This document shows, in pieces, positions 12,698 through 63,942 of a DNA stretch of 64,000 bases (its first letter is position 1; each line of letters begins with the position of its first letter). Origin of the DNA: a phage. The notes beneath the pieces were generated by a model, which saw nothing but the letters and a program-made list of their open reading frames with translations, did not search any database and had not been told where the DNA came from. The stretch lies in assembly GCA_014686905.1 (NCBI GenBank), contig GCA_014686905.1_4093.1; one strand, given 5' to 3'. The position numbers were made by a program, and so were the translations under genes.

Positions 12698-15016
12698 ATG
12701 ATTAACGTAACCAAGCGTAATGGAATGAAAGAGCCGTTATCATTGGATAAGATCCATCAAATTTTATTTTTCGCTGCTGAAGGTTTAAGTGGTATTTCAG
12801 TTTCTGAAATTGAAATCCGAGCACAGCTTCAGTTTTATGAAGGTATTGAAACTAGTACTATTCATGATATTCTTATTAAAGCAGCAGCAGAACTTATTTC
12901 AGAAGATACACCTAATTACCAATATGTTGCTGGAAGACTATTAAACTATAGTATTCGTAAGCAAGTATATGGGCAGTATGACCCAATTAAATATACTGCT
13001 CATCTTCAAGAAATGGTTGATACCAAAATATATGATCCTGAAATTCTTGAGAAATATACTCTTCAAGAAATAGAAGAGCTTGGACGTTATATCAAACATA
13101 AACGTGACGATAAATTTACTTATGTTGCAATGCGTCAATGGGAAGGAAAATACCTTTACAAAAATCGCGTTACTAAGAAAATTTATGAAACTCCACAAAT
13201 GGCATATATGACTATTGCAGCAATCATCTTTATGGAGTATGATCGTTCTGTTCGTATGTCATATGTTAAAAAGTTTTATGATGCAGTAAGTAACTTTGAC
13301 ATTAGTCTTCCTACGCCTATTATGGCTGGTCTACGTACAAATACACGTCAGTTTAGCTCTTGTGTAGTACTAAACGTTGGTGACAGCTTGGATAGTATTG
13401 GTTCCTCTAACCACGCTATTCTACGTTATATTTCACGTAAAGCTGGTCTTGGTATTAATATGGGCCGCATTCGTGCTCTGGACTCCGAGATTCGTTCAGG
13501 TGATGCAGTACACACTGGGCTGATTCCGTTCATTGCAGCTACTGCTAAGACTGTTAAAAGCTGTTCACAAGGTGGTGTTCGTGGTGGTGCAGCAACTGTT
13601 CACTTCCCATTGTGGCATTTGGAATTTGATAACTTGGTAGTCCTTAAAAATAACAAAGGTACTGAGTTTAACCGTGTGCGTCAACTGGACTATTGTTTCC
13701 AAGTAAACAAAACTTTGTATCAACGTTTGGTTGATGGAAAGAATATTACATTCTTTAGTCCTAATGAAGTCCCTGGGCTATATGAAGCATTCTGCTCTGA
13801 TCAAAAAGAATTTGAAAAGTTATATAAAAAATACGAAGCTGACCAAAGCATCCGTAAAAAATCCGTACCTGCTGTTGAAGTATTCAGTACTTTAATGACT
13901 GAGCGTGCTGAAACTGGGCGTATCTATATTCAAAATATTGACCATGCAAACACTCATTCAACATTTATTGAATCTATTGCACCTATTGAACAATCCAACT
14001 TGTGTCAAGAAATCGCACTACCATCTGTGCCATTTGATGACATTAATACTGGGGAAGGTTTGATTAGTTTATGTACATTGAGTGCAATCAACTGGGGTAA
14101 CTTTGACCGTCCAGAAGATATGGAAACGGCATGTGATCTTTCTGTTCGTGCTCTTGATTCTCTATTAGACTATCAAGACTACCCAGTAGTTCATGCTGAC
14201 CGTGCTACAAAAATGTATCGTCCACTAGGTGTTGGTATTATTAACTTTGCATACTTCCTTGCTAAACGTGGTTTACGTTATAATGAAGCAGCACTAGAAA
14301 CAGTTAACGAGTGGGCCGAGGCATGGTCTTACTATCTAATTAAATCTTCTGTACAGCTTGCTAAAGAGAAAGGTAAGTGTGAAGGATTTGATAATCTAAA
14401 ATATGCCAAAGGTATCCTTCCAATCGATACTTATAAATCGGACATTGATGAATTAGTAACTAAAGAACTAAAACAAGATTGGGAATCCTTACGTGCCGAT
14501 ATCAAAGAATATGGTATTCGTAACGCAACAACAATGGCATTAATGCCAGCAGAAACAAGTGCACAAATCAGTAACAGTACTAACGGTATTGAAAAGCCAC
14601 GTTCTCTTGTAACGAAGAAACTATCTAAGGATGGTATTCTTAAACAAGTAGTTCCAGAAATCAATAAGTTGAAAAACAAATATGATTTACTATGGGATCA
14701 GAAAGATAACATTGGTTATCTACAAATCTGTGGTGTTCTACAAAAATACATTGACCAAAGTATCAGTGTTAATACTAGTTATAACCCAATACACTTCCCT
14801 GATGGTAAGTTGCCAATGTCAACTCTTCTAACTGAACTTATGTATGCATATAAAGTTGGTTTGAAAAATCTTTATTATCATAATACAAATGATGGTTCAG
14901 ATGAAGTAGACGTTGAAAAAGTACTGAAAGAAGCTGCCAAACCAGAATCTGGACAATTTGTATTACCATCACTTCCTGATTTGGATGAAGGTGATTGTGA
15001 TAGTTGTAAAATCTAA
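12698..15016 (+). CDS. nrdA: ribonucleotide reductase class Ia large subunit
   Basis: 772 aa; N-terminal ATP-cone (VTKRNG...LDKI), RNR catalytic core, C-terminal CxxC tail. Confidence 0.92.
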   Translation: MINVTKRNGMKEPLSLDKIHQILFFAAEGLSGISVSEIEIRAQLQFYEGIETSTIHDILIKAAAELISEDTPNYQYVAGRLLNYSIRKQVYGQYDPIKYTAHLQEMVDTKIYDPEILEKYTLQEIEELGRYIKHKRDDKFTYVAMRQWEGKYLYKNRVTKKIYETPQMAYMTIAAIIFMEYDRSVRMSYVKKFYDAVSNFDISLPTPIMAGLRTNTRQFSSCVVLNVGDSLDSIGSSNHAILRYISRKAGLGINMGRIRALDSEIRSGDAVHTGLIPFIAATAKTVKSCSQGGVRGGAATVHFPLWHLEFDNLVVLKNNKGTEFNRVRQLDYCFQVNKTLYQRLVDGKNITFFSPNEVPGLYEAFCSDQKEFEKLYKKYEADQSIRKKSVPAVEVFSTLMTERAETGRIYIQNIDHANTHSTFIESIAPIEQSNLCQEIALPSVPFDDINTGEGLISLCTLSAINWGNFDRPEDMETACDLSVRALDSLLDYQDYPVVHADRATKMYRPLGVGIINFAYFLAKRGLRYNEAALETVNEWAEAWSYYLIKSSVQLAKEKGKCEGFDNLKYAKGILPIDTYKSDIDELVTKELKQDWESLRADIKEYGIRNATTMALMPAETSAQISNSTNGIEKPRSLVTKKLSKDGILKQVVPEINKLKNKYDLLWDQKDNIGYLQICGVLQKYIDQSISVNTSYNPIHFPDGKLPMSTLLTELMYAYKVGLKNLYYHNTNDGSDEVDVEKVLKEAAKPESGQFVLPSLPDLDEGDCDSCKI

Positions 15017-47140: not shown

Positions 47141-47569
47141 ATGAATATCGAACAAACTATCCGTGAACATTCTTTCTTCGCTCCAGAAACTGGTCGTGTT
47201 ATTGAGAGCGTCAAAATCGAAGAACTAATGGTCAATGTTAAATACAAAGAACCAAATGATGAGATTAGCAGTACTTTTTGTGCTCTACGTGCACCATTCC
47301 GTAATGAAAAAGCTAAGAAACCAGCATATGTTCTTGCCATTGCACTGGGTTGTGTTGTAAAACTTGCAGTTGATGAAAATCTTCTGAATATTAAAGTTGC
47401 ACCAAGCAATGACGATGAAAACATTGATTTGAACTTTGATGGTTCTCTTGATGAAGATGTATTTTTCCAACAGTCACTTGTTTACGACTTCCGTACAGTG
47501 ACACATTCTCACATCAAGTTCATTAATGAAATGGTTGAGATTGTTGCTGAATACGAAGAATCTCTCTAA
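47141..47569 (+). CDS. EE-x-F-Q-motif small protein family member
   Basis: C-terminal LDEDVFFQQSLVYDF; terminator downstream. Confidence 0.45.
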   Translation: MNIEQTIREHSFFAPETGRVIESVKIEELMVNVKYKEPNDEISSTFCALRAPFRNEKAKKPAYVLAIALGCVVKLAVDENLLNIKVAPSNDDENIDLNFDGSLDEDVFFQQSLVYDFRTVTHSHIKFINEMVEIVAEYEESL

Positions 47570-47577
47570 GTAAATAC

Positions 47578-47604
47578 AAAAGCCTCCATTATGGAGGCTT
47601 TTAT
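47578..47604 (+). terminator. rho-independent terminator
   Basis: AAGCCTCC-ATTAT-GGAGGCTT-TTAT. Confidence 0.6.
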
Positions 47605-47622
47605 CACATAAGGAAATGAAAT

Positions 47623-48174
47623 ATGATAGACCAAATTAAAATCCTTACAAAGCAAATCACTGATTTTCTTTCTGATAAAGATGGATTTAATACAGAAGTA
47701 AAAATGCACGGTGTTAGTGTTGATGTAATTGCACCAAATGGTAATGTAACAAGTTACGACATGTATGAATTACTTCTTTATACTCTAGCAGTACGTAAAC
47801 TAGGTAGTGATATTGAACTCAATATCAATACTGATGAAAGTGGGAATAAAATTTTTGCAATCAACACCAGTGCTAAATTCGATATCAGTACTGAAATTAA
47901 AAAAATAAATGAAAGTTTTATTGGCTTTAAGCATGAATCAATTCAAAGTGTTTTTATTGGAAAGCAAACTTCTAATAGTGAATGCCCATATTGTGTAATG
48001 ACTTTATATAAAGATGGAAACTGGATGCGTCAAGATTTAGTATTTGCTGAACTTCTGTATGCATTTACACATGAACTTAAAATCGAATTGGACGATAGTG
48101 TTTATTGCTTTAAGAAAATTCGAAATATAACTAAAGATATACAAACCCAACTTAAAGAATTAAATGATAAATAA
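47623..48174 (+). CDS. hypothetical protein
   Basis: 183-aa ORF. Confidence 0.4.
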   Translation: MIDQIKILTKQITDFLSDKDGFNTEVKMHGVSVDVIAPNGNVTSYDMYELLLYTLAVRKLGSDIELNINTDESGNKIFAINTSAKFDISTEIKKINESFIGFKHESIQSVFIGKQTSNSECPYCVMTLYKDGNWMRQDLVFAELLYAFTHELKIELDDSVYCFKKIRNITKDIQTQLKELNDK

Positions 48175-48289
48175 ATATACCAGAAATGGTTAACATATCA
48201 TGTTACTTTCCTCCCTTACATAATAATGATGCGTTATTATATTTTCATTTTGTTCTTATTCCCCTTTTGGTACAAAATCATTTTAGTAC

Positions 48290-48315
48290 TGCCCCGATCT
48301 TCGGGGCATTTTTCT
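48290..48315 (+). terminator. rho-independent terminator closing an ORF-free 160-bp interval
   Basis: TGCCCCGA-TCT-TCGGGGCA-TTTTTCTT. Confidence 0.65.
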
Positions 48316-48334
48316 TATCTAAAATTGAGGATAT

Positions 48335-48730
48335 ATGAAGAACAATATTGGAACTTCAATAATTAAACCACTTTCTTATTACCTTGAAAAATTTAGAAGC
48401 ACAAATGGTAATAAATTTAATAATATATTTCAGTTCTCTCATAAAGAATATATTACAATTGATCATTTTTCAAAGAAACTAATGTATGTAAATGATAATA
48501 GTCATATTATTAAATTATCATTCGATATTGAGTTAGATAAATTAACATTTACGGAATACATTAATCAAAAAACTTCTTTTTTATGTCAATACAATAGGAA
48601 AGTATATAGTAATATTTCTATGTATCTAAATGATGAATATCACTTTCAACAATCTACAATAGAAGAAGTATTGTTCAGTACTGAAGAATTAAAAGAACTA
48701 TATTACTGGTATAATTATTTCACATCTTGA
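48335..48730 (+). CDS. EE-x-F-Q-motif family member
   Basis: NDEYHFQQSTIEEV. Confidence 0.45.
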   Translation: MKNNIGTSIIKPLSYYLEKFRSTNGNKFNNIFQFSHKEYITIDHFSKKLMYVNDNSHIIKLSFDIELDKLTFTEYINQKTSFLCQYNRKVYSNISMYLNDEYHFQQSTIEEVLFSTEELKELYYWYNYFTS

Positions 48731-48755
48731 CATTATTGTGGGTTTATCCTACAAT
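48727..48755 (+). promoter_or_regulatory. sigma70-like promoter
   Basis: TTGACA-17-TACAAT. Confidence 0.55.
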
Positions 48756-48785
48756 ACATGATGATGCTGCATTGAGGATAAATTT

Positions 48786-49196
48786 ATGAGTTTAGATTTA
48801 CACAATGAACTAAAATATTTTTTAGATTTGGACATATCAGAATTGAACCACCACGTCAATCATATGACTAGTACTGTATGGTGGTCTAATGAACAAGACG
48901 ACCCAATTATCCAACTAAGTGATGAATCGTCAATTATGCGATTTTATAAGATTAATTATAAAAAGAACATCAAGATCACATATGTACCATACAAAAACAT
49001 ATTACTAGTCGAAACACTTAATCCAAGTTCTTTATTAAAAATCACCGATTTAGATACATTACAAACAAGTGAATCTTTATTCCAACGTTCATTAGTTGAT
49101 GATCTTGGTGGTATTACTTTTGAAGATATATTACAATTGAAGAATATGTATAGTGAATTGTTGGAGATTAAAAACACTTTAGTAATGGGGAATTGA
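48786..49196 (+). CDS. EE-x-F-Q-motif family member
   Basis: TSESLFQRSLVDDLGGITFEDI. Confidence 0.45.
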   Translation: MSLDLHNELKYFLDLDISELNHHVNHMTSTVWWSNEQDDPIIQLSDESSIMRFYKINYKKNIKITYVPYKNILLVETLNPSSLLKITDLDTLQTSESLFQRSLVDDLGGITFEDILQLKNMYSELLEIKNTLVMGN

Positions 49197-49197
49197 T

Positions 49198-49602
49198 ATG
49201 GTAAGTTTACTAGATATTGATAATACCAGTTTAGTGCTGGTGAAAAAAGGTTTAATTCCAAATTCTAAAAAAATTGATTATGCTGTTATTGAAACAAATA
49301 TTGGAAATATCTGGTACGACTCTGAAAGGGATATTGTGTTTAGCTGTGTAGACAGTGATCGTTCTGAATGTTGTAGAGTCGGTCATGACGGACAATTTGT
49401 TTTTGAATTTCGTTATTGGAAGAACGCAAAATTTCACCAAGAACTGGTTGCTTTGTCAAATGAACTATATACAGAAGAATCGTTCTTCATGGCTAGTACT
49501 ATTAATGATTTTGGTTCAGTTACATTTGAGTACTATAAAAAAATATACGCACTATCCAGAGAAGTTATGAAAATTATCAGAACTGCTGAAGGTAAAGAAT
49601 AA
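49198..49602 (+). CDS. EE-x-F-Q-motif family member (degenerate motif)
   Basis: TEESFFMASTINDFGSVTFEY. Confidence 0.45.
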   Translation: MVSLLDIDNTSLVLVKKGLIPNSKKIDYAVIETNIGNIWYDSERDIVFSCVDSDRSECCRVGHDGQFVFEFRYWKNAKFHQELVALSNELYTEESFFMASTINDFGSVTFEYYKKIYALSREVMKIIRTAEGKE

Positions 49603-49603
49603 C

Positions 49604-49981
49604 ATGACTACTATATATGATATTTTGGGTGTTCTGAGTAGAAATATAGATGATGATTTTGTTATTGTTCAAGATACTAGAAATACATTTCAACTACCAA
49701 TAGGTTCACCAGATAGGTTAATTTTTAATAGATACTCAAATGAACTAACTTACATCCATGATGGGATTGCAATTGTATCAGTTTCTATAAACGACTATAC
49801 AATACGATATGTATATGACTTCAACGATTATTGTACAAGAATCCACAGTATTGATATTTCCGAAGAGGAACTATTCCAATTGTCATTGATTGAGAAAAAT
49901 GTAATAGGAATTACAGAAATTGGTATTATTAAAAAAGCATTAAACTATACAAATATAAGAATTAATGGTGGGTGCAGATGA
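49604..49981 (+). CDS. EE-x-F-Q-motif family member
   Basis: SEEELFQLSLIEKNVIGITEI. Confidence 0.45.
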   Translation: MTTIYDILGVLSRNIDDDFVIVQDTRNTFQLPIGSPDRLIFNRYSNELTYIHDGIAIVSVSINDYTIRYVYDFNDYCTRIHSIDISEEELFQLSLIEKNVIGITEIGIIKKALNYTNIRINGGCR

Positions 49982-50433
49982 ATGTTGACGAAATAAAAAA
50001 TCATTTTGAAATTGCAATGTCATGTGAATTTGACACACAACGTGTTCATGACCCGAAAGAACATATACGCATTTGTTGTGAATTGTCAGATGATTGTAAT
50101 ATTTTTATTGGAAAAACCTATGACATGATCGATCTTTCATGTATAGATCCATTGGAAAGAAAAACAAAATATTTATATCTGTACAACACAACATCAGATA
50201 CGATTGCAATACAACTAATATCAACCACAACATCCCACAGTTATTATAACATAACTGAGGTTAGTAGTTTAACGTTAACCGAAGAAGGATTCTTTCAACA
50301 ATCGCTTATTCGTGAAATTGGTGTTAGTTATGATGAGTTAAATGTATTAGTAGATTGTTTCGAAAAATTGAGTACTTTTGTATTATCCCTTTTTAATATA
50401 CAGTCGCAAAATCCAATGGTGGTGAAATGCTAA
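49978..50433 (+). CDS. EE-x-F-Q-motif family member
   Basis: TEEGFFQQSLIREIGVSYDEL; ATG overlaps upstream stop. Confidence 0.45.
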   Translation: MNVDEIKNHFEIAMSCEFDTQRVHDPKEHIRICCELSDDCNIFIGKTYDMIDLSCIDPLERKTKYLYLYNTTSDTIAIQLISTTTSHSYYNITEVSSLTLTEEGFFQQSLIREIGVSYDELNVLVDCFEKLSTFVLSLFNIQSQNPMVVKC

Positions 50434-50867
50434 ATCCAAGTAAATTTCTCCACTTACTTTCGATAACATCAATACCGGATCTTACCAGTGAAACTAATGA
50501 ATATCGTGAAGCTGGGGTGGTGTCTATGGAACTCGATACATTTGACCACAAATGCTATGTGACATATGACCCACCGCGTTATGGTAAAGAACATTCTTCT
50601 TTTATTTTTGTATTCGTATACACTGTATATGATAATACAACACTTGATGATGTTTGTATTGACACTTACGAAATTTGTGATAATATCATAACTGATGACA
50701 ACAATAACTCATTTGATATGTCACTATATAACACAGAAGAATCGTTGTTTCAACTTAGTACTGTTATTGATGCACCATCATTAGAAGATATAAAACAATT
50801 TCAAGAACATCTTGACGCAGTTCGTGAGATGTTCTATAATCATTATCCAGAAGTAGAGTTCAATTAA
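50427..50867 (+). CDS. EE-x-F-Q-motif family member
   Basis: TEESLFQLSTVIDAPSLEDI. Confidence 0.45.
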   Translation: MLNPSKFLHLLSITSIPDLTSETNEYREAGVVSMELDTFDHKCYVTYDPPRYGKEHSSFIFVFVYTVYDNTTLDDVCIDTYEICDNIITDDNNNSFDMSLYNTEESLFQLSTVIDAPSLEDIKQFQEHLDAVREMFYNHYPEVEFN

Positions 50868-50881
50868 CTAAAGGTAATAAG

Positions 50882-51142
50882 ATGACTAAAGTAGTTCGTA
50901 AACGCCACATGATGAACATGGATGAATTTCGTACATTTGACAAATATCGTACTATGTTTCGTATGCTTTCACAGGGCCGTCCAATCGTCATTGTAACAGA
51001 GAATTACATGTCACCTGAGATTATGTTTGGTAATTATGAAAAGGTCTTCATGTTGTACGTGAAGCGTGGATTACTTACAATCAAGACATTAGCTGAAGCA
51101 ACTGATGAAGATATGGATGGTGATAATACCTTTACCATGTGA
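50882..51142 (+). CDS. hypothetical protein
   Basis: 86-aa ORF. Confidence 0.35.
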   Translation: MTKVVRKRHMMNMDEFRTFDKYRTMFRMLSQGRPIVIVTENYMSPEIMFGNYEKVFMLYVKRGLLTIKTLAEATDEDMDGDNTFTM

Positions 51143-51220
51143 GGAAATATATGTCTGAAAAGCCAAAAGAACCATTAGATCGTGATGATGATTTTTATGA
51201 CGAACGATATGGAGATGATG

Positions 51221-51472
51221 ATGAGTGAACATAGTGCTGTGCTTAAAAAGATTTTAAAGGAACTTGATGGTGAGTTTAATGTCACAGAAGAAGAATATCA
51301 GCATTGGAAGAAAGGTTTTGAACAACTAACCGAGTATGATAAAGTGTTCAATATGATTGGTGTAATTAGCCAGTACTTACTCGGTGGAGGACGTGCAAGT
51401 GCTTCAATTCTGGCATCTGCAATCATCTGTACATCACGATGGTGTGATGAAAAAAGTTTGGAAGATTTCTAA
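51221..51472 (+). CDS. hypothetical small protein
   Basis: Track ORF 51182 (GTG); likely start in ATG run 51215-51221; a 25-aa acidic upstream ORF (51151..51228) overlaps. Confidence 0.3.
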   Translation: MSEHSAVLKKILKELDGEFNVTEEEYQHWKKGFEQLTEYDKVFNMIGVISQYLLGGGRASASILASAIICTSRWCDEKSLEDF

Positions 51473-51487
51473 ATAAGATGCTATAAT
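51458..51487 (+). promoter_or_regulatory. sigma70-like promoter upstream of C5 methyltransferase
   Basis: TTGGAA-18-TGcTATAAT. Confidence 0.5.
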
Positions 51488-51524
51488 ATATTATAGTACC
51501 TTAACAATATAAAAAGGATTTTAT

Positions 51525-52385
51525 ATGAAACCTATCCGAGTACTTTCTCTTTTTAATGGAATGAGTGTGGGATATATGGCATTGCAAGATGCTGGTATCC
51601 CAGTTGAAAAATATTATTCATCCGAAATTGACAAGTACGCAATAGCTGAATCTCAATCTAACTTTCCTGATATTATCCAATTGGGTGATGTAACTAAGTG
51701 GAGAGAATGGGATATTGAGTGGGACAAAATAGATTTATTAATGGGTGGTTTCCCATGCCAAGCCTGGTCAGTTGCAGGTAAACAGGGTGGTTTAAATGAT
51801 ATACGTGGGCAGTTATTTTTAGTAATGGTTGAAATTTTTGATCATATCAAAAGTCTCAATCCTAACTTGAAATTTCTGTTTGAAAATGTTAAAATGAAGG
51901 AAGATTTCAAAGAATACATTAATAGTATTTTAGGAATCACGCCAGTACTGATAAACTCCCAGCATTATACGCCTCACTTCAGGCAGAGATATTACTGGTA
52001 CAGTACTGATAAGCTTTTTATACCACCTGCATTATCCAATGCACCTAAACTTCAAGATATTATTGAAGATGGTTGGTACACTGACAGAACCGCTTCGTAC
52101 TGTATAGATGCTAACTATTTTAAAGGTGGTGATTGTAACCAGTACTTTAATAAATCCAGACGACAATTGGTGTTTCGTGACCCAGTGATCAGTCGTCAAT
52201 ATCTATTAGAGAATGGCAAAAGAAATATTGACTATAGACACTTAAGTGTAGTAGAATGTTGTAAATTACAGGGTGTTCCTGAAGATTTCTTTAAAGTGTC
52301 TAGTAAGACACAAGCATACAAAATGCTTGGGAATGGATGGACTATGCCAGTTATATCACATTTACTAAGAGAGATATTCTTTTGA
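51525..52385 (+). CDS. DNA (cytosine-5)-methyltransferase
   Basis: Motif I LFNGMSVG, IV GGFPCQAWS, VI FLFENV, VIII HFRQRYYW, X LGNGWTMPV; 286 aa, short target-recognition region. Confidence 0.88.
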   Translation: MKPIRVLSLFNGMSVGYMALQDAGIPVEKYYSSEIDKYAIAESQSNFPDIIQLGDVTKWREWDIEWDKIDLLMGGFPCQAWSVAGKQGGLNDIRGQLFLVMVEIFDHIKSLNPNLKFLFENVKMKEDFKEYINSILGITPVLINSQHYTPHFRQRYYWYSTDKLFIPPALSNAPKLQDIIEDGWYTDRTASYCIDANYFKGGDCNQYFNKSRRQLVFRDPVISRQYLLENGKRNIDYRHLSVVECCKLQGVPEDFFKVSSKTQAYKMLGNGWTMPVISHLLREIFF

Positions 52386-52867
52386 ACATAAACAAATACC
52401 AAACTTATATAAAACGTACAGAAAGTTTCAAACGGCTGGCTGTAAAATCTGAATTAGAATTTAATTTGTATTATCCTAATATTGGTGATGAGGTATTTTA
52501 TTGCTCTCATTCAAAGAATGGAACTTTACTTAAATCGGGTAAAGGAACTATTGTTGATATGACCGCAAATTTCAGAGGTAAACTTAATGTAATGTACAAA
52601 GTACAAGATTCAAGTACTGAGTGTATTCATGAAGTGATGCATAACATACCTGCATATCCAAAAGATTTTGTTCAGCTAATATCTCGAAGGGAGAAACCTA
52701 TGTTTTATTGTGGTTACGACAAATTAACCAAACAAATTATTCCTAATACTATGGGAAAATTTAAAAGTGATGTGAAATCTGAACTTGAAAAGAAATTTGG
52801 CACGTCATGGGAAACTGAAAACGAGTTTATCGAAATTCGTTTAATTGAAATTACTATACTTGAATAA
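52337..52867 (+). CDS. hypothetical protein (start uncertain)
   Basis: ORF overlaps methyltransferase 3' end by 49 nt in another frame. Confidence 0.3.
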   Translation: MDYASYITFTKRDILLNINKYQTYIKRTESFKRLAVKSELEFNLYYPNIGDEVFYCSHSKNGTLLKSGKGTIVDMTANFRGKLNVMYKVQDSSTECIHEVMHNIPAYPKDFVQLISRREKPMFYCGYDKLTKQIIPNTMGKFKSDVKSELEKKFGTSWETENEFIEIRLIEITILE

Positions 52868-52871
52868 TTAC

Positions 52872-52896
52872 AAATCCACGCATTGCGTGGATTTTT
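52872..52896 (+). terminator. rho-independent terminator
   Basis: AAATCCACGC-ATT-GCGTGGATTT-TTC. Confidence 0.55.
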
Positions 52897-52909
52897 CATA
52901 GGTGCATAT

Positions 52910-53425
52910 ATGCCAATTCCTTATGTTAAAATTATTAATAATATTCTCGATTCATGGGAAGATGTTATTACTGGTAAAAAGAAACCATCACCAGTACATG
53001 CTTTATCTGGGAAACTTCAATTCAGAATGTCAAACCAAACTGAAACATTTAATAATCATGATATTTGCATTACATTAAAAACACCTGTTAGTATTGTAAT
53101 TAAAAAAAATAAAGATGATGAATTGACATTATCTATTGGTCGTGATAAAATCATTTTAAGTAATTTGTCTGAAGAAGAATTCTTTCAACGTAGTACTATC
53201 ATCGATATGAAAGATTTCACATATGAATCATTGGTTGAACTCAATACACGTTTTAACGATATTCAGGAACGATTGCGACCAATTCTTCGTATCGAAGAAG
53301 AAGCCTGGATTGAAAGTATTAGGAAGATGCAAGAAATGTTGAAAGAAAATATTAACAATCTGGGTAAAGCTACAATGGAATTTGGTAAAACTTTTAAACT
53401 GAACTTTTCAAAGGATCGTAAATGA
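52910..53425 (+). CDS. EE-x-F-Q-motif family member
   Basis: SEEEFFQRSTIIDMKDFTYESL; track ORF 52883 starts TTG inside terminator. Confidence 0.45.
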   Translation: MPIPYVKIINNILDSWEDVITGKKKPSPVHALSGKLQFRMSNQTETFNNHDICITLKTPVSIVIKKNKDDELTLSIGRDKIILSNLSEEEFFQRSTIIDMKDFTYESLVELNTRFNDIQERLRPILRIEEEAWIESIRKMQEMLKENINNLGKATMEFGKTFKLNFSKDRK

Positions 53426-53877
53426 AAATTGATAATTTGATTCATGTTTTAGGATCTTTACATAAAATATTATCACATCTACATGAGATAAAGAAACTGG
53501 GATTTAACATCTCAAATTCAATTGAAACTACATTTAAATATCAATCAATTACTGGTGATGGTTATTACATAATCGAATATACTTATGAAACCGATCCAGA
53601 CTTCTATCCTCTTACGTTGAGAATTTATCCAACAAATCCGAGAGGAATTCACGACATATCATCAATTTCACTTGATCCAGATGGTGAAACGAGTATTGAA
53701 TACAATAATGATTCAAAACCAGAATTTTACATTGATGATATTAAAATGATGTTCAACGATGAATATGTTTTCCAACAAAGTACTGTGCATGATGTTGGAA
53801 GTACTAATGGACAATTTTGGAATACGTGTTATTATCATATGATTGAAATTTGTAAATTACTAAAAGGCGATGATTAA
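53422..53877 (+). CDS. EE-x-F-Q-motif family member
   Basis: NDEYVFQQSTVHDVGS. Confidence 0.45.
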   Translation: MKIDNLIHVLGSLHKILSHLHEIKKLGFNISNSIETTFKYQSITGDGYYIIEYTYETDPDFYPLTLRIYPTNPRGIHDISSISLDPDGETSIEYNNDSKPEFYIDDIKMMFNDEYVFQQSTVHDVGSTNGQFWNTCYYHMIEICKLLKGDD

Positions 53878-54260
53878 TGAAATACAGCATTGAAGTACAT
53901 TACACTACAGGGGACACTGAAACTGAAGATTCAGTTACCAATACATTGGATGTTCAATGGGAATCAAAGGATGAGGCAGTTGTAGCATTACAGTCGTTGA
54001 AAGAGCATTGGGTATTCTTTAAGAAACTCGATGATGCATATAGTAACGAACGTGCGACAATAATCGATGAAGCCAAACATAAAGAATGGTTTGATCCAAT
54101 GTCATGTGAATTCTCTTTCTTTGTAAAAATTGGAGATGAAAAAATTCCAGTACGTACACCGTGGAACGGCTACTTTGAAACTCTTCATAATGCACGAGTT
54201 GTCGCTGTTGATAATCCTGAACAAATCGATTTCGATTCATTGGACTGGAAAAAACTATGA
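53877..54260 (+). CDS. hypothetical protein
   Basis: 127 aa, TAATG overlap. Confidence 0.4.
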   Translation: MKYSIEVHYTTGDTETEDSVTNTLDVQWESKDEAVVALQSLKEHWVFFKKLDDAYSNERATIIDEAKHKEWFDPMSCEFSFFVKIGDEKIPVRTPWNGYFETLHNARVVAVDNPEQIDFDSLDWKKL

Positions 54261-54700
54261 CAGTACTGCACCAATTAAAGAAGGTTAAGCATCCAGTTGT
54301 ATACGAGGATTGGAAACGACAGAAGTTGATGGGTGATTTTTATTTCCCAAAATCTAAAGTTCTTGCGAATTCAAGATGTACATATTTCAAACATAATGAT
54401 AAAGATACAGTATTTGTTGAAATGGGTTTCAATCCATCAAATACAATGTTCAGCACTAACCAAACATTTTACAAATTTCATATCCAAAAAGATTCATTTT
54501 CTATCATGATTTTAAAACTTTTAGTTGAAGATCTGCTATACCGTGGTGAACGTGTTCCTTTATCATTAGTGGATATTCCTTATAATAATTTAGAGGAAAT
54601 GTACTTCCAACAGTTGACAATACAAGAAGACTTTGGTATGATAGGACTTCAAGAGTTAGAGATGATTAAACAAATTCGTGATATCTACTTTAAGGAGTAA
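54257..54700 (+). CDS. EE-x-F-Q-motif family member
   Basis: LEEMYFQQLTIQEDFGMIGLQEL. Confidence 0.45.
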   Translation: MTVLHQLKKVKHPVVYEDWKRQKLMGDFYFPKSKVLANSRCTYFKHNDKDTVFVEMGFNPSNTMFSTNQTFYKFHIQKDSFSIMILKLLVEDLLYRGERVPLSLVDIPYNNLEEMYFQQLTIQEDFGMIGLQELEMIKQIRDIYFKE

Positions 54701-55170: not shown

Positions 55171-55199
55171 TTGACACATGAAAATGGAGTATGTATAAT
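55171..55199 (+). promoter_or_regulatory. consensus sigma70 promoter
   Basis: TTGACA-17-TATAAT. Confidence 0.65.
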
Positions 55200-55231
55200 A
55201 CTCCTATATTAATTAAACGAGGATATACGAA

Positions 55232-56821: not shown

Positions 56822-57108
56822 AAATTTTAGAAGTCTTGCTAGAAAAAGATGCATCTGGTACTCTTTATGTTGGTAATGAGTTCAGTCCAGATCCAATTGA
56901 TATGTTACAGAGAATCCAAACACTGACTCAAAACATCTCGGTTAAAAAACCGTTTCAGAAAGAATTGGAAATCTTTTGTGATAAAGATATTGAACAGCAT
57001 GATAATGTGATTTCAGATATTAAAAGTCTATTGACAAAAAATGGTTATGTAGAGTATAATCCTCCTATCGTAATCGTTATTCCAGACTTCATGAAAGGAA
57101 CAATCTAA
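56818..57108 (+). CDS. hypothetical protein
   Basis: 96-aa ORF. Confidence 0.4.
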   Translation: MKILEVLLEKDASGTLYVGNEFSPDPIDMLQRIQTLTQNISVKKPFQKELEIFCDKDIEQHDNVISDIKSLLTKNGYVEYNPPIVIVIPDFMKGTI

Positions 57109-57377: not shown

Positions 57378-57666
57378 ACATGAAGTAATTCATTTTGATG
57401 ATAAGATCTATATTCCAAATATTGATAGTACTGAAACATATTACCTAATCAATAAGATTATGGCTGAAACAAATACGTGTTGTCGTCAACAGCCAGGAAA
57501 ATATGAGTTCAGTCAGACTATTGGTTATTACCGATATGATATGTTAGAATCATTTACAATTGATAAGTCTAAAGTTATTGACATTCTTGTACAGAATGGA
57601 TATAATGAACAACGTGTAAATGATACAGATTTACCAGTTTCAAAAATTGTTCTTTCTAATAATTAA
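57370..57666 (+). CDS. hypothetical protein
   Basis: Track ORF 57307; in-frame ATG 57370. Confidence 0.35.
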   Translation: MNKHEVIHFDDKIYIPNIDSTETYYLINKIMAETNTCCRQQPGKYEFSQTIGYYRYDMLESFTIDKSKVIDILVQNGYNEQRVNDTDLPVSKIVLSNN

Positions 57667-59080: not shown

Positions 59081-59473
59081 ATGACTGAATCAGAACTACA
59101 CGAAATGATAGATTTCATTTATGAAATGGTGCAAGATAAAAATAACATCAATACAATTACTACTGGACCAAGACAAATTGGTAACCAAATGACCTATTCG
59201 TTGTCTTTATGGTTACACCCGAACTTCAAGGTTGATTATTTGTATTTCCGTCCTGATATTGATGCTTATTATTTTGTAAATCATGATGCATTAATGAAAC
59301 CAAATAAGCGTACAGTTGATGATACCTTTGTGACACACCCATTTTACCTGGCTGATTCCGAAGAAGATGAGTTTCAAAAGAACACAACGTTAAACCCAGG
59401 TGAAATTTGCATCCCTTACGTACTTAAAGATAAAATGAATTACATCACAGAAGTTATGAAAACATGCTGGTAG
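59081..59473 (+). CDS. EE-x-F-Q-motif family member
   Basis: SEEDEFQKNTTLNPGEI. Confidence 0.45.
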   Translation: MTESELHEMIDFIYEMVQDKNNINTITTGPRQIGNQMTYSLSLWLHPNFKVDYLYFRPDIDAYYFVNHDALMKPNKRTVDDTFVTHPFYLADSEEDEFQKNTTLNPGEICIPYVLKDKMNYITEVMKTCW

Positions 59474-59741: not shown

Positions 59742-60230
59742 ATGCCAATTCGTGGTGTACCAGAACCATTAATGGAAGTTATTAAGCATGTTCGCATTGG
59801 AGATCGAGAAGTTAATCTTCGCCGTAATAACATTTATTACTTTAAAACTTCAGAAATGAGTTCTGTACAGATTGTCATTGGTACATCTATTAAGATTACT
59901 CGTGTACTTGATGGTAGTACTGATTTCGTTGAATATAATGTACTTACTAACAAAGTAATACACACATATAAATGGAGTGGGTATAAAACTATTAAGTATG
60001 AGTTTGATGTTGCTAGAACTGAAGAAGAACGATTTATGTTAAGTACTATCAATCCAGCAAACTACCCTGACCTTGATACATTTTTGCTAATTTTAAAACT
60101 GTATAATGAAGCAAATGGGAAAGCGAAGGAGTATGATAGAATTATGTATGAACGCAAAAAAGAACGTGCTCAGAAAAGTTATGATCTTTATGATAACCCA
60201 TATGTAAAATATAATAAGGGGAGAAAATGA
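59742..60230 (+). CDS. EE-x-F-Q-motif family member (degenerate motif)
   Basis: TEEERFMLSTINPANYPDL; ATG 59742 after GGAG. Confidence 0.45.
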   Translation: MPIRGVPEPLMEVIKHVRIGDREVNLRRNNIYYFKTSEMSSVQIVIGTSIKITRVLDGSTDFVEYNVLTNKVIHTYKWSGYKTIKYEFDVARTEEERFMLSTINPANYPDLDTFLLILKLYNEANGKAKEYDRIMYERKKERAQKSYDLYDNPYVKYNKGRK

Positions 60231-60631
60231 ATAACGAAGTTCAAATTATCATAACTCCACCTATACAAAGTCTTGATGTATCTATTAGTGATTTTTTAGA
60301 AAAATATTATGAATGGTTTAATAATGATAATACCATTTATAATCATTCATTACCAGATGGTTTCGTGGAGCTTATCGAATTAAATTCAAAATCACTATAC
60401 TTCTGTGTTGAATACAATGATTATATGACAGATGAAGCTTATCGCTTTCGTTGTACATTGTATCCGAATTATTTTTCAATAGGTTATAAAGATTACCAGT
60501 ACTGTACCACTAACTATAGTGTTGAGGAAGAATTTCAGTACAATTTACTTTATCCTGATTTAGATTATACGATTGCAGTACTGTTGACTAAAATCATGGA
60601 TTTTTATAAAGATAAATATAATGCAGCCTAA
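60227..60631 (+). CDS. EE-x-F-Q-motif family member
   Basis: VEEEFQYNLLYPDLDYTI. Confidence 0.45.
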   Translation: MNNEVQIIITPPIQSLDVSISDFLEKYYEWFNNDNTIYNHSLPDGFVELIELNSKSLYFCVEYNDYMTDEAYRFRCTLYPNYFSIGYKDYQYCTTNYSVEEEFQYNLLYPDLDYTIAVLLTKIMDFYKDKYNAA

Positions 60632-60806
60632 GACATTTGATGAGTGGTTTAATCTACACTATAATATAAATGCAGCAGATATATACTATTTTAAGCTTGA
60701 ATTGTATATATCATTGCGTAACCCAATTGAGTACTATAACAACATTATCAATTGTGATGATTTTGGTACATATTTTAGTATAGCCGTTATGGATATTAAG
60801 AGATGA
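60621..60806 (+). CDS. hypothetical small protein
   Basis: 61 aa; stop overlaps next ATG. Confidence 0.35.
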   Translation: MQPKTFDEWFNLHYNINAADIYYFKLELYISLRNPIEYYNNIINCDDFGTYFSIAVMDIKR

Positions 60807-60982
60807 CACATGAAGAATGGATGGCAATGATGAAAAAACGTTATGACCAGTTTGGAAATGGATTTATTGATGGTCATTTCGATATTTTACGAGACAAATA
60901 TAAGTTCGAATCATATGTACTAGATGAGAATGGAAATCGTTGGTTCATCTATGAGCTTGCGGTTAGAGACAAAAAAATATAA
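60803..60982 (+). CDS. MTHEEW-family mini-protein, copy 1 (59 aa)
   Basis: Untracked ORF MTHEEWMAMMKKRYDQFGNGFIDGHFDILRDKYKFESYVLDENGNRWFIYELAVRDKKI. Confidence 0.5.
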   Translation: MTHEEWMAMMKKRYDQFGNGFIDGHFDILRDKYKFESYVLDENGNRWFIYELAVRDKKI

Positions 60983-61060
60983 TAACCTTTTCCATTGTCC
61001 ATTGCAATGCTTTCTTTACAGAAGAATAAATGAAACACTTAATTGAACTGGATACATAAA

Positions 61061-61237
61061 ATGACACATGAAGAATGGATAGAGTCACTAAAATATAAAC
61101 ATGATCATTTTGGATTTGGTATACGCCAAGGCCATTATGATGTTTTGAACGATAAAAAAACGTTCGAATCATTGGTTTTGGACGAAGATTCCAACCACTG
61201 GTTCATCTACGAGCTTGCTATTAGAGATAAAAAATAG
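61061..61237 (+). CDS. MTHEEW-family mini-protein, copy 2
   Basis: Track ORF 61043 (TTG); ATG 61061 gives MTHEEWIESLKYKHDHFGFGIRQGHYDVL...WFIYELAIRDKK. Confidence 0.5.
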   Translation: MTHEEWIESLKYKHDHFGFGIRQGHYDVLNDKKTFESLVLDEDSNHWFIYELAIRDKK

Positions 61238-61242
61238 TAAGA

Positions 61243-61578
<336 letters not shown>

Positions 61579-61579
61579 A

Positions 61580-61762
61580 ATGACACACGAAGAATGGATG
61601 TCCAAACAGCATAAAGAACATGACTGCTTTGGGAATGGCATTCGTCAGGTACATTATGATATATTAAGAGATGAAAATCTTTTCAGGTCATATGTTTTGG
61701 ATACCAGAAAACCCTGGTTTATATGCGAACTGGCATTTAGAAAGTCAAATAATCAAAACTAA
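61580..61762 (+). CDS. MTHEEW-family mini-protein, copy 3
   Basis: Track ORF 61562 (TTG); ATG 61580; conserved 5' context cacttaattgNactggatacataaaatgacaca shared with copy 2. Confidence 0.5.
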   Translation: MTHEEWMSKQHKEHDCFGNGIRQVHYDILRDENLFRSYVLDTRKPWFICELAFRKSNNQN

Positions 61763-61778
61763 ACAAGGAATACAAAAA

Positions 61779-61997
61779 ATGGAAACAACTTTATTTGAAG
61801 TTATTCAATCATTAAAACCTGAAGATGAGGTTCAAGTACTACTACATGGTTATCGTGTAAAAGGTACTGTGGTTTTAGTCAATGATACAACATTGGTTAT
61901 TACAGAAACAAACCCATATGATAGTAATCAACTTGCCAATATCCATATCGATATCACTGGAATTATTGGTGTCGGTGTATCTAAAGCACTTGCATAA
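61779..61997 (+). CDS. hypothetical small protein
   Basis: Track ORF 61671; ATG 61779 after AAGGAA. Confidence 0.35.
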   Translation: METTLFEVIQSLKPEDEVQVLLHGYRVKGTVVLVNDTTLVITETNPYDSNQLANIHIDITGIIGVGVSKALA

Positions 61998-62017
61998 ATC
62001 ATTAATTCATTATATAA

Positions 62018-62146
<129 letters not shown>

Positions 62147-62150
62147 AATA

Positions 62151-62227
62151 CGGGGTATAGCACAATTGGATAGTGCAAGAGAATTCTAATCTCTAGGTTG
62201 GGGGTTCAAGTCCCTCTACCTCGGCCA
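62151..62227 (+). tRNA. tRNA-Arg (anticodon TCT), CCA encoded
   Basis: Acceptor CGGGGTA/TACCTCG, D-stem GCAC/GTGC, anticodon loop ATTCTAA, T-arm GGGGG-TTCAAGT-CCCTC. Confidence 0.8.
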
Positions 62228-62250
62228 ATTTTAATTAAAGGTTAAAAACC

Positions 62251-62411
<161 letters not shown>

Positions 62412-62415
<4 letters not shown>

Positions 62416-62572
62416 CACATGAAGAATGGATGAATGACATTAATTTTAGATATTCGGGTATCGGTAGATGGCTAAAGTATCATTGGGAATTCATTTCAGA
62501 GCCACATCTGTATGATAAACTTATCAACGATCCAGCATATGAAATGTACTTAATTGAACTACTGGTACGATT

Positions 62573-62576
<4 letters not shown>
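62412..62576 (+). CDS. MTHEEW-family mini-protein, copy 5 (54 aa)
   Basis: MTHEEWMNDINFRYSGIGRWLKYHWEF...; ATGA overlap with copy 4. Confidence 0.5.
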
Positions 62577-62738
<162 letters not shown>

Positions 62739-62747
62739 AAAAAAAAG

Positions 62748-63156
<409 letters not shown>

Positions 63157-63161
<5 letters not shown>

Positions 63162-63186
63162 CTAAATAGTTCAGTACTGATATAAT
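63157..63186 (+). promoter_or_regulatory. repeated promoter cassette copy 2
   Basis: Identical 23-bp repeat, TTGACT-17-TATAAT. Confidence 0.65.
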
Positions 63187-63237
63187 GAATTCCACAATCA
63201 GACGTATATGGTGTAAGTTACGTATAGTGAGGTTTAT

Positions 63238-63845
<608 letters not shown>

Positions 63846-63849
63846 ATTA

Positions 63850-63921
<72 letters not shown>

Positions 63922-63942
63922 CATAAACAATGAGAGGTATAA

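Follow-up and report, generated by a model that had tools for sequence, protein, structure and literature searches.

A Large Paralogous Family of Small Proteins in RaK2-Like Jumbo Phages, Probably Built on One Fold, With a Conserved C-Terminal Motif and Hypervariable N-Termini

Introduction

Most of the genetic content of jumbo phages is dark matter, and expansions of paralogous genes have been described in them: nearly 10% of the gene products of RaK2 were reported as paralogues, 22 paralogous open reading frames (ORFs) were listed for CBB, and a roughly 35-copy expansion in phage G was termed unprecedented (Iyer et al. 2021). Here, we analyze a 64,000-nucleotide stretch of phage DNA (contig GCA_014686905.1_4093.1 of assembly GCA_014686905.1; hereafter, the window), in which a sequence-only reading had pointed to an array of ten small + strand genes at 47141–54700 whose products share a short motif near the C-terminus. 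The family to which these genes belong resembles the expansions described before in being large, in being arranged in tandem, and in comprising small proteins of unknown function from an accessory region of a jumbo phage genome; it fits the remark made on RaK2. Compared with such an expansion, it is larger (64 copies in phage 121Q) and far more diverged, with about 25 residues still recognizable. No description of the family or of its motif was found in the papers searched, among them those on RaK2, CBB, phAPEC6, Sharanji, and fEgEco12 and those of Hua 2017 and Iyer 2021.

Two other known systems invite comparison. The internal proteins IPI, IPII, and IPIII of T4 are likewise small and variable apart from a single short conserved segment, and their genes lie in plastic regions of a large myovirus genome. 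In T4, however, the conserved tag is N-terminal and is cleaved, whereas the segment described here is near the C-terminus, 28–81 residues from the end, and is part of the fold; the T4 proteins are basic, whereas ours are mostly acidic and are absent from virion proteomes. The second comparison is with small phage inhibitors, among them many anti-CRISPR and anti-defense proteins. These share with the family small size, early-type promoters, acidity, the absence of enzymatic motifs, a sheet-plus-helix design, and a gene content that varies between isolates.

Results

A Motif Shared by 15 Genes of the Window and 64 Genes of 121Q

The window belongs to an Asteriusvirus jumbo coliphage: it is 98–99.5% identical to BAU.Micro_ELP-22, G17, phAPEC6, 121Q, and PBECO4 of that genus, and its position 47141 matches 58099 of 121Q (NC_025447.1). 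In 121Q, the ten genes bear the numbers 80, 83–88, 93, 94, and 96 and are all annotated as hypothetical; the 7.5-kb array that they occupy (the 47141–54700 region) is intact in 34 of 46 database records. All ten + strand ORFs were found where they had been placed; they encode 125–171 amino acids, and each carries the motif. A regular-expression search followed by a hidden Markov model (HMM) of the C-terminal module added five members outside the array, at 59–64 kb, bringing the window to the 15 proteins that had been counted from the sequence. Matches to the module HMM in the window were limited to + strand family genes.

In a MAFFT alignment of the ten array proteins, the motif falls in a single column block, where F never varies and E, Q, and S reach at least 90% conservation. 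The invariant Phe lies 28–47 residues from the C-terminus in nine of the ten genes; for the gene at 52910, the distance is 81 residues (ORF as listed from 52883). The consensus reads [ST]-E-E-x-[YLFM]-F-[QM]-x-S-[TL]-[IV]-x-[DN], and there is a second conserved stretch, Phi-x-G-Phi-T-x-E-[DE]-Phi. Within the first stretch, variation is free only at positions −2 and +2 relative to Phe. An EF-hand reading of D-Phi-x-G-Phi-T-x-E-E was dropped, as the register does not fit and Pfam returned no match.

The motif is conserved as protein and not as DNA, because its residues are encoded by varied synonymous codons, with serine drawn from both of its codon families. Across 58 genes, Ser is encoded by AGT or AGC in 33 and by TCN in 16, Phe by TTT in 35 and by TTC in 23, and Gln equally often by CAA and CAG (27 each).

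We then took the census of the complete 121Q genome with an HMM iterated to convergence on all ORFs of at least 45 amino acids. It yielded 64 member ORFs, all on the + strand, against none among residue-shuffled ORFs; the pattern seen by eye in the window is therefore real. The members are 104–223 amino acids long (median 148) and are found mainly at 58–81 kb, the region covered by the window, and at 160–190 kb. With about 600 coding sequences in 121Q, the family accounts for more than 10% of the gene complement.

Predicted Structures Extend the Family Over the Whole Protein

An AlphaFold2 (AF2) model of the protein encoded at 48786, built from a 105-sequence family alignment, had a mean predicted local distance difference test score (pLDDT) of 89.6 and a predicted template modeling score of 0.82, with pLDDT above 90 in the module. 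It has a helix at residues 5–13, seven consecutive antiparallel strands at 21–87, a helix bearing the motif at 95–102, and a last helix at 112–134. The model of the protein encoded at 53422, built from a 30-sequence alignment, was of moderate confidence (pLDDT 70.8) and has the same topology, with an N-terminal helix, six strands, a short motif-bearing helix, and a long C-terminal helix.

A Foldseek search of BFVD with the 48786 model returned full-length matches with template modeling (TM) scores of 0.58–0.87 at 13–26% identity; those at 13–20% identity had TM scores of 0.58–0.70. The matched proteins are uncharacterized and come from RaK2, Yersinia phages fHe-Yen9-03 (an Eneladusvirus) and fHe-Yen9-04, Cronobacter phage GAP32, and others. 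The BFVD models were built independently of the AF2 models made here. As TM scores of 0.58–0.87 are beyond the reach of a 40-residue module alone, the variable N-terminal part forms the same sheet in the modeled members. The models thus suggest that each member is probably a single domain made of an N-terminal helix, a seven-stranded antiparallel beta-meander, and a C-terminal helix-loop-helix, which is probably a new fold variant.

The motif itself can be read in these terms. Its [ST]-E-E start looks like a standard helix N-cap, and it would open a two-turn helix that is closed by Ser. The invariant Phe, together with its hydrophobic neighbors at −1, +4, and +5, would anchor this helix onto the sheet. 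Because only the stripe formed by −2 and +2 is variable, we read the motif helix as part of a buried core and not as an appended tag.

The N-Terminal Parts Have Diverged Beyond Sequence Comparison

The claim that the N-terminal regions show no mutual similarity was upheld at the sequence level. All-vs.-all phmmer comparison of the N-terminal parts found no mutual similarity, and BLAST clustering of 148 of them gave only tiny groups. Leave-one-out HMMs scored real N-terminal parts barely above shuffled ones (mean z 0.87), and hhalign comparison of the N-terminal parts of seven ortholog-group profiles gave probabilities of at most 2%. Because all of these sequence tests were negative, it is structure prediction that carries the common fold.

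Searches against known families agree with the original impression of an unrecognized, expanded family. Pfam gave only scattered subthreshold hits for the ten array proteins and no domain in the longest members; a scan of 105 family members at E ≤ 0.01 gave no known domain apart from a RecQ-1-like_HTH match in one sequence. That match is strong (E 3.7e-12) and belongs to a sequence that is not among the 40 proteins scanned individually. PADLOC returned no match for the family, and the family profile searched against all PDB sequences gave a best E of 0.11. In PHROGs, the ten array proteins each match a group of their own (phrog_23322, 33313, 24941, 24510, 36084, 30841, 30548, 38573, 21500, and 23719) at E 1e-71 to 1e-118, and all ten groups are listed with unknown function. 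Cross-hits between them are weak and confined to the C-terminal module, so PHROGs does not unite the family.

The Family Is Confined to One Clade of Jumbo Phages

We searched 1.84 billion cluster representatives with a profile of the 51-column module and obtained 98 clusters at E ≤ 0.001. Full-length matches are 92–222 amino acids long (there are a few shorter fragments), and nearly all matches place the motif 25–50 residues from the end. Many of the matched clusters come from metagenome assemblies and have no close counterpart in 121Q. This exhaustive search with the module profile was far more informative than one with a full-length paralog profile, which recovered close orthologs only. With tblastn, one member and the module consensus matched only jumbo phages with genomes of 310–386 kb that infect Escherichia, Klebsiella, and Salmonella, apart from one weak partial match each in an Erwinia phage and a Xanthomonas phage. 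The family is thus confined to RaK2-like jumbo phages, a single phage clade. On the one 50-kb metagenomic contig that we inspected, 15 of the 24 midsized genes in a 19-kb stretch are members.

Phage fEgEco12, from a second Asteriusvirus lineage, has syntenic one-to-one orthologs of all 15 window members. The members are a median 81% identical to these orthologs compared with 88% for neighboring genes (P = 0.05), and individual pairs go down to 50–68%. The pooled ratio of nonsynonymous to synonymous substitution rates (dN/dS) over these pairs comes to 0.27 in the N-terminal part and 0.19 in the C-terminal module; purifying selection therefore maintains each paralog over its whole length, with no gross positive selection.

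The array at 160–185 kb (121Q 160001–185000) behaves differently from that in the window. It is a mosaic even where isolates agree at about 98% over the rest of the genome; its coverage reaches 80% or more in only 4 of 36 records and is 44% in the closest relative of the window. This largest array is hyperplastic, in that near-identical Asteriusvirus isolates share 44–70% of it, in several pieces, unlike the array in the window. The expansion presumably arose by tandem duplication.

Members in the Window

The 15 members, all on the + strand, are tightly packed, and stop and start codons often overlap. Each is named here by its first coordinate, and the lengths of those at 49978 and 52910 were counted from annotated starts. 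The array opens at 47141..47569 with a 142-amino acid protein (motif LDEDVFFQQSLVYD), the ortholog of 121Q gene 80, which the module HMM matches at E 2e-19. Six further members run from 48335 to 50867. The gene at 48335..48730 (121Q gene 83) encodes 131 amino acids with the motif LNDEYHFQQSTIEE, and that at 48786..49196 (gene 84), which gave the high-confidence structural model, encodes 136 with QTSESLFQRSLVDD. These are followed by genes at 49198..49602 (134 amino acids, YTEESFFMASTIND, gene 85) and 49604..49981 (125 amino acids, ISEEELFQLSLIEK, gene 86). The next gene, at 49978..50433 (gene 87), encodes 151 amino acids from an ATG at 49978 that overlaps the preceding stop codon, and its motif is LTEEGFFQQSLIRE; the one after it, at 50427..50867 (gene 88), encodes 146 with NTEESLFQLSTVID.

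The remaining three array members lie farther downstream. The 171-amino acid protein encoded at 52910..53425 (121Q gene 93) carries LSEEEFFQRSTIID and has a longer helical C-terminal tail. The gene at 53422..53877 (gene 94), the product of which was the first to be modeled with AF2, at moderate confidence, encodes 151 amino acids with FNDEYVFQQSTVHD, and that at 54257..54700 (gene 96) encodes 147 with NLEEMYFQQLTIQE. Alignment and HMM both assign the members at 48335, 49198, 49604, 50427, and 54257 to the family.

The five members outside the array begin with a 130-amino acid protein encoded at 59081..59473 (DSEEDEFQKNTTLN, 121Q gene 110). A 162-amino acid protein with RTEEERFMLSTINP and a basic C-terminal tail is encoded at 59742..60230 (gene 112), and the 134-amino acid product of 60227..60631 (gene 113) has the divergent motif YSVEEEFQYNLLYP. 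The last two are at 62808..63161 (117 amino acids, KTEEEYFQMSTVQE, gene 128) and 63238..63621 (127 amino acids, ADEEDEFQKRTVYE, gene 130). Of the 15 window members, 11 are acidic, with isoelectric points (pI) of 4.1–5.1; of the other four, two are close to neutral and two basic.

Within the array, three similarly sized genes, which may be degenerate members, lack the motif, namely 47623–48174 (183 amino acids), 52337–52867 (176 amino acids), and 53877–54260 (127 amino acids). The module HMM scored the first at E 3.1, and the other two did not reach E 10.

Virion Status and Transcription Signals

The phAPEC6 orthologs (gp134c, 132c–127c, 121c, 120c, 103c, 093c, and 092c) are not among the 62 virion proteins identified by mass spectrometry (PMC7247149). 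None of the 121Q orthologs is annotated as a structural protein, unlike many other genes of that phage. A role in the virion or in targeting to the capsid is contradicted by the published phAPEC6 proteome together with the 121Q annotation.

Promoters were called as consensus matches, and a site agreeing with the sigma70 consensus at 11 or more of 12 positions was counted as near consensus. There are 105 such sites on the + strand of 121Q and 13 on the − strand, against about 14 expected. They are concentrated at 40–110 kb and 140–160 kb. Three near-consensus sites on the + strand of the window stand next to family members: TTGACA-17-TACAAT at 48727..48755, in the gap just upstream of the member at 48786; TTGACT-16-TATAAT at 62749..62776, just upstream of that at 62808; and TTGACT-17-TATAAT at 63158..63186, just upstream of that at 63238. 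Within the array, a strong + strand hairpin of the intrinsic-terminator type at 48290..48308 (TGCCCCGATCTTCGGGGCA followed by a T run) would close the preceding transcription unit. As sigma70-type promoters stand upstream of the + strand arrays, these are probably transcribed early by the host RNA polymerase.

Terminator-like sites are frequent in the region (17 compared with 6.0 expected). An intergenic hairpin at 47576–47604 is terminator-like on the − strand only (ATAAAAGCCTCCATAATGGAGGCTTTTGT), and another at 55186–55204 is so on both strands. The window also holds three perfect 12/12 sigma70 consensus sites, at 55171–55199, 57031–57060, and 57578–57606.

Neighboring Genes

A gene for a C5 cytosine DNA methyltransferase lies midarray at 51525–52385. 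Family members also flank a C5 DNA methylase gene (12841–13698) on the metagenomic contig described above, which is distantly related and has the same layout as the window. A second paralogous family, of six tiny proteins (54–66 amino acids) with the invariant N-terminus MTHEEW, occupies 60803–62737 of the window; its genes, at 60803–60982, 61058–61237, 61577–61762, 62251–62415, 62412–62576, and 62573–62737, are interleaved with tRNA genes. Six tRNA genes lie among small ORFs at 61265–63922: Gly-tcc, Ser-tga, Arg-tct, Ser-act, Met-cat, and Asn-gtt. The 121Q record has tRNA-Leu(taa) where the window has tRNA-Arg(tct).

Elsewhere in 121Q, genes 48, 464, 473, 475, and 581 encode ClpS-like, two ClpP-like, HslV-like, and ClpA-like proteins, besides a gp21-like prohead protease. 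About 13 paralogs of an RCC1-like “DNA condensation” protein form a block on the − strand at 117–131 kb.

Discussion

The genes of the array belong to one very large paralogous family, and we tentatively suggest that its most likely role is that of a repertoire of binders used in host takeover or anti-defense. Our confidence is fair for the structural part of this proposal and low for the functional part. Under the proposal, each protein would be a small, soluble, single-domain scaffold in which the conserved C-terminal helix-loop-helix serves as clamp and folding core of the seven-stranded sheet. The N-capped two-turn helix would be set on one face of the sheet by the invariant Phe, and a short extended segment and a turn would then lead into the long last helix at its N-cap. 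Sheet and loops would have been duplicated and diversified beyond sequence recognition. Arrays placed behind sigma70-type promoters would be transcribed early by the host RNA polymerase, and the variable sheet surface of each member may recognize a different host or defense component. A binder repertoire fits because the proteins are nonvirion, mostly acidic, and free of catalytic motifs; because their promoters are of the early type; and because the paralogs are retained one to one while the largest array is plastic. A role in host takeover or anti-defense, which the sequence-only reading had also put forward, is plausible on these grounds.

Several points weigh against this proposal. The N-terminal parts have no detectable homology even profile to profile, and some members could have other N-terminal folds; the common fold comes from predictions for a few members. 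The burial of the motif residues is read from the conservation pattern and not from model coordinates. The invariance of the polar E-E, Q, and S in 64 paralogs and several genera exceeds what a folding core usually needs and leaves room for a shared ligand or partner. The promoter matches are consensus hits rather than transcription data. Finally, dN/dS is below 1 throughout, and the signature of an ongoing arms race is absent within ortholog pairs.

That E-E, Q, and S are as invariant as Phe is the basis of an alternative that we regard as unlikely, in which the family is a library of adaptors. The helix-loop-helix would be exposed and would dock all members onto a common hub, and the variable sheets would bring different clients to it. 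Candidate hubs, at the same low probability, are RNA polymerase and the phage’s own ClpS/ClpA/ClpP/HslV-like machinery, to which some 60 sheet surfaces would deliver captured host or defense proteins. The near invariance of these four residues, within 121Q and across genera, while all else drifts, speaks for such docking, as does the presence in 121Q of ClpS-like, ClpA-like, HslV-like, and two ClpP-like proteins. Conservation, however, spans about three-quarters of the surface of the helix and includes the hydrophobic anchor, as expected of a buried element, and in the AF2 model the module forms part of the packed domain, at pLDDT above 90. We also know of no degron or adaptor motif of this form. 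Such a library would give bacterial viruses an equivalent of the adaptor expansions (F-box, BTB, and ankyrin) seen in poxviruses and giant viruses.

The interpretation originally offered, modular proteins in which unrelated N-terminal effector domains are joined to a shared C-terminal targeting or interaction module, is in our view rather improbable. Its account of an expanded family with hypervariable N-termini stands, and the failure of BLAST, phmmer, leave-one-out HMMs, and hhalign to relate the N-terminal parts speaks for it; its targeting tag on unrelated effectors is not supported. Models from two ortholog groups share the alpha-beta7-alpha-alpha topology over their whole length, the distant BFVD models superpose on the full length, the length distribution is narrow around its median of 148 amino acids, and a recognizable effector domain was found in no member scanned, including the longest.

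The predicted topology brings to mind p32 (gC1qBP/MAM33), which has an N-terminal helix, seven antiparallel strands, and two C-terminal helices packed on one face and forms a homotrimeric doughnut with an asymmetric acidic surface. The family could on this basis consist of analogues or very remote relatives of p32, acting as acidic oligomeric decoys for many ligands, possibly as nucleic acid mimics, and sequestering host proteins. The likeness of the predicted topology and the acidity of 11 of the 15 window members are consistent with this idea. We nonetheless consider it rather doubtful, since the MAM33 Pfam model matched neither the ten window members scanned at E ≤ 1 nor the 105 members scanned at E ≤ 0.01, the search of PDB sequences did not return p32, and some members are neutral or basic.

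It is very unlikely that the motif is a protease cleavage site or a capsid-targeting sequence of proteins that are packaged and injected with the DNA. It bears a superficial likeness to E-x-x-[YF]-F-Q, and the phage possesses an inner body as well as a prohead protease resembling gp21 of T4. The sites of TEV and 3C proteases, E-x-x-Y-x-Q↓S and LEVLFQ↓G, require a small P1′ residue (G, S, or A) in an accessible linker, whereas in the family many different residues, often bulky ones, follow Q (Y, Q, L, E, M, N, and others across 58 genes). The predictions, moreover, place the motif in a helix that belongs to the fold itself, and the orthologs are missing from the phAPEC6 virion proteome and are not flagged as structural in 121Q. 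A substrate of a 3C/TEV-like protease was rejected on account of the variable residue after Q and the position of the helix inside the domain, the genome not having been systematically searched for such a protease. Least credible of all, and refuted by codon usage, is a DNA-level signal (an embedded promoter, a recombination site, or some other nucleotide signal) translated by chance: promoters do commonly sit within upstream genes of compact phage genomes, but synonymous codons vary freely at every conserved residue, and all 64 genes carry the motif in frame.

The family makes up about 1 gene in 10 across a clade of ∼350-kb phages of Enterobacterales that includes Asteriusvirus, the RaK2/K64-1 group, GAP32, CBB, Eneladusvirus, and uncultured relatives. 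As a clear example of duplicated genes diverging about as far as homology can still be detected, it bears on how jumbo genomes grow. Once they are seen as one scaffold, dozens of orphan hypothetical proteins, now in separate PHROGs, become one tractable question, and the Escherichia coli host lends itself to expression screens, pull-downs, and the deletion of arrays. Should the members bind host or defense proteins, they would offer a large and so far unexploited source of inhibitors, as well as a candidate new protein scaffold; if they instead dock onto a common hub, they would represent a new viral strategy in bacteria.

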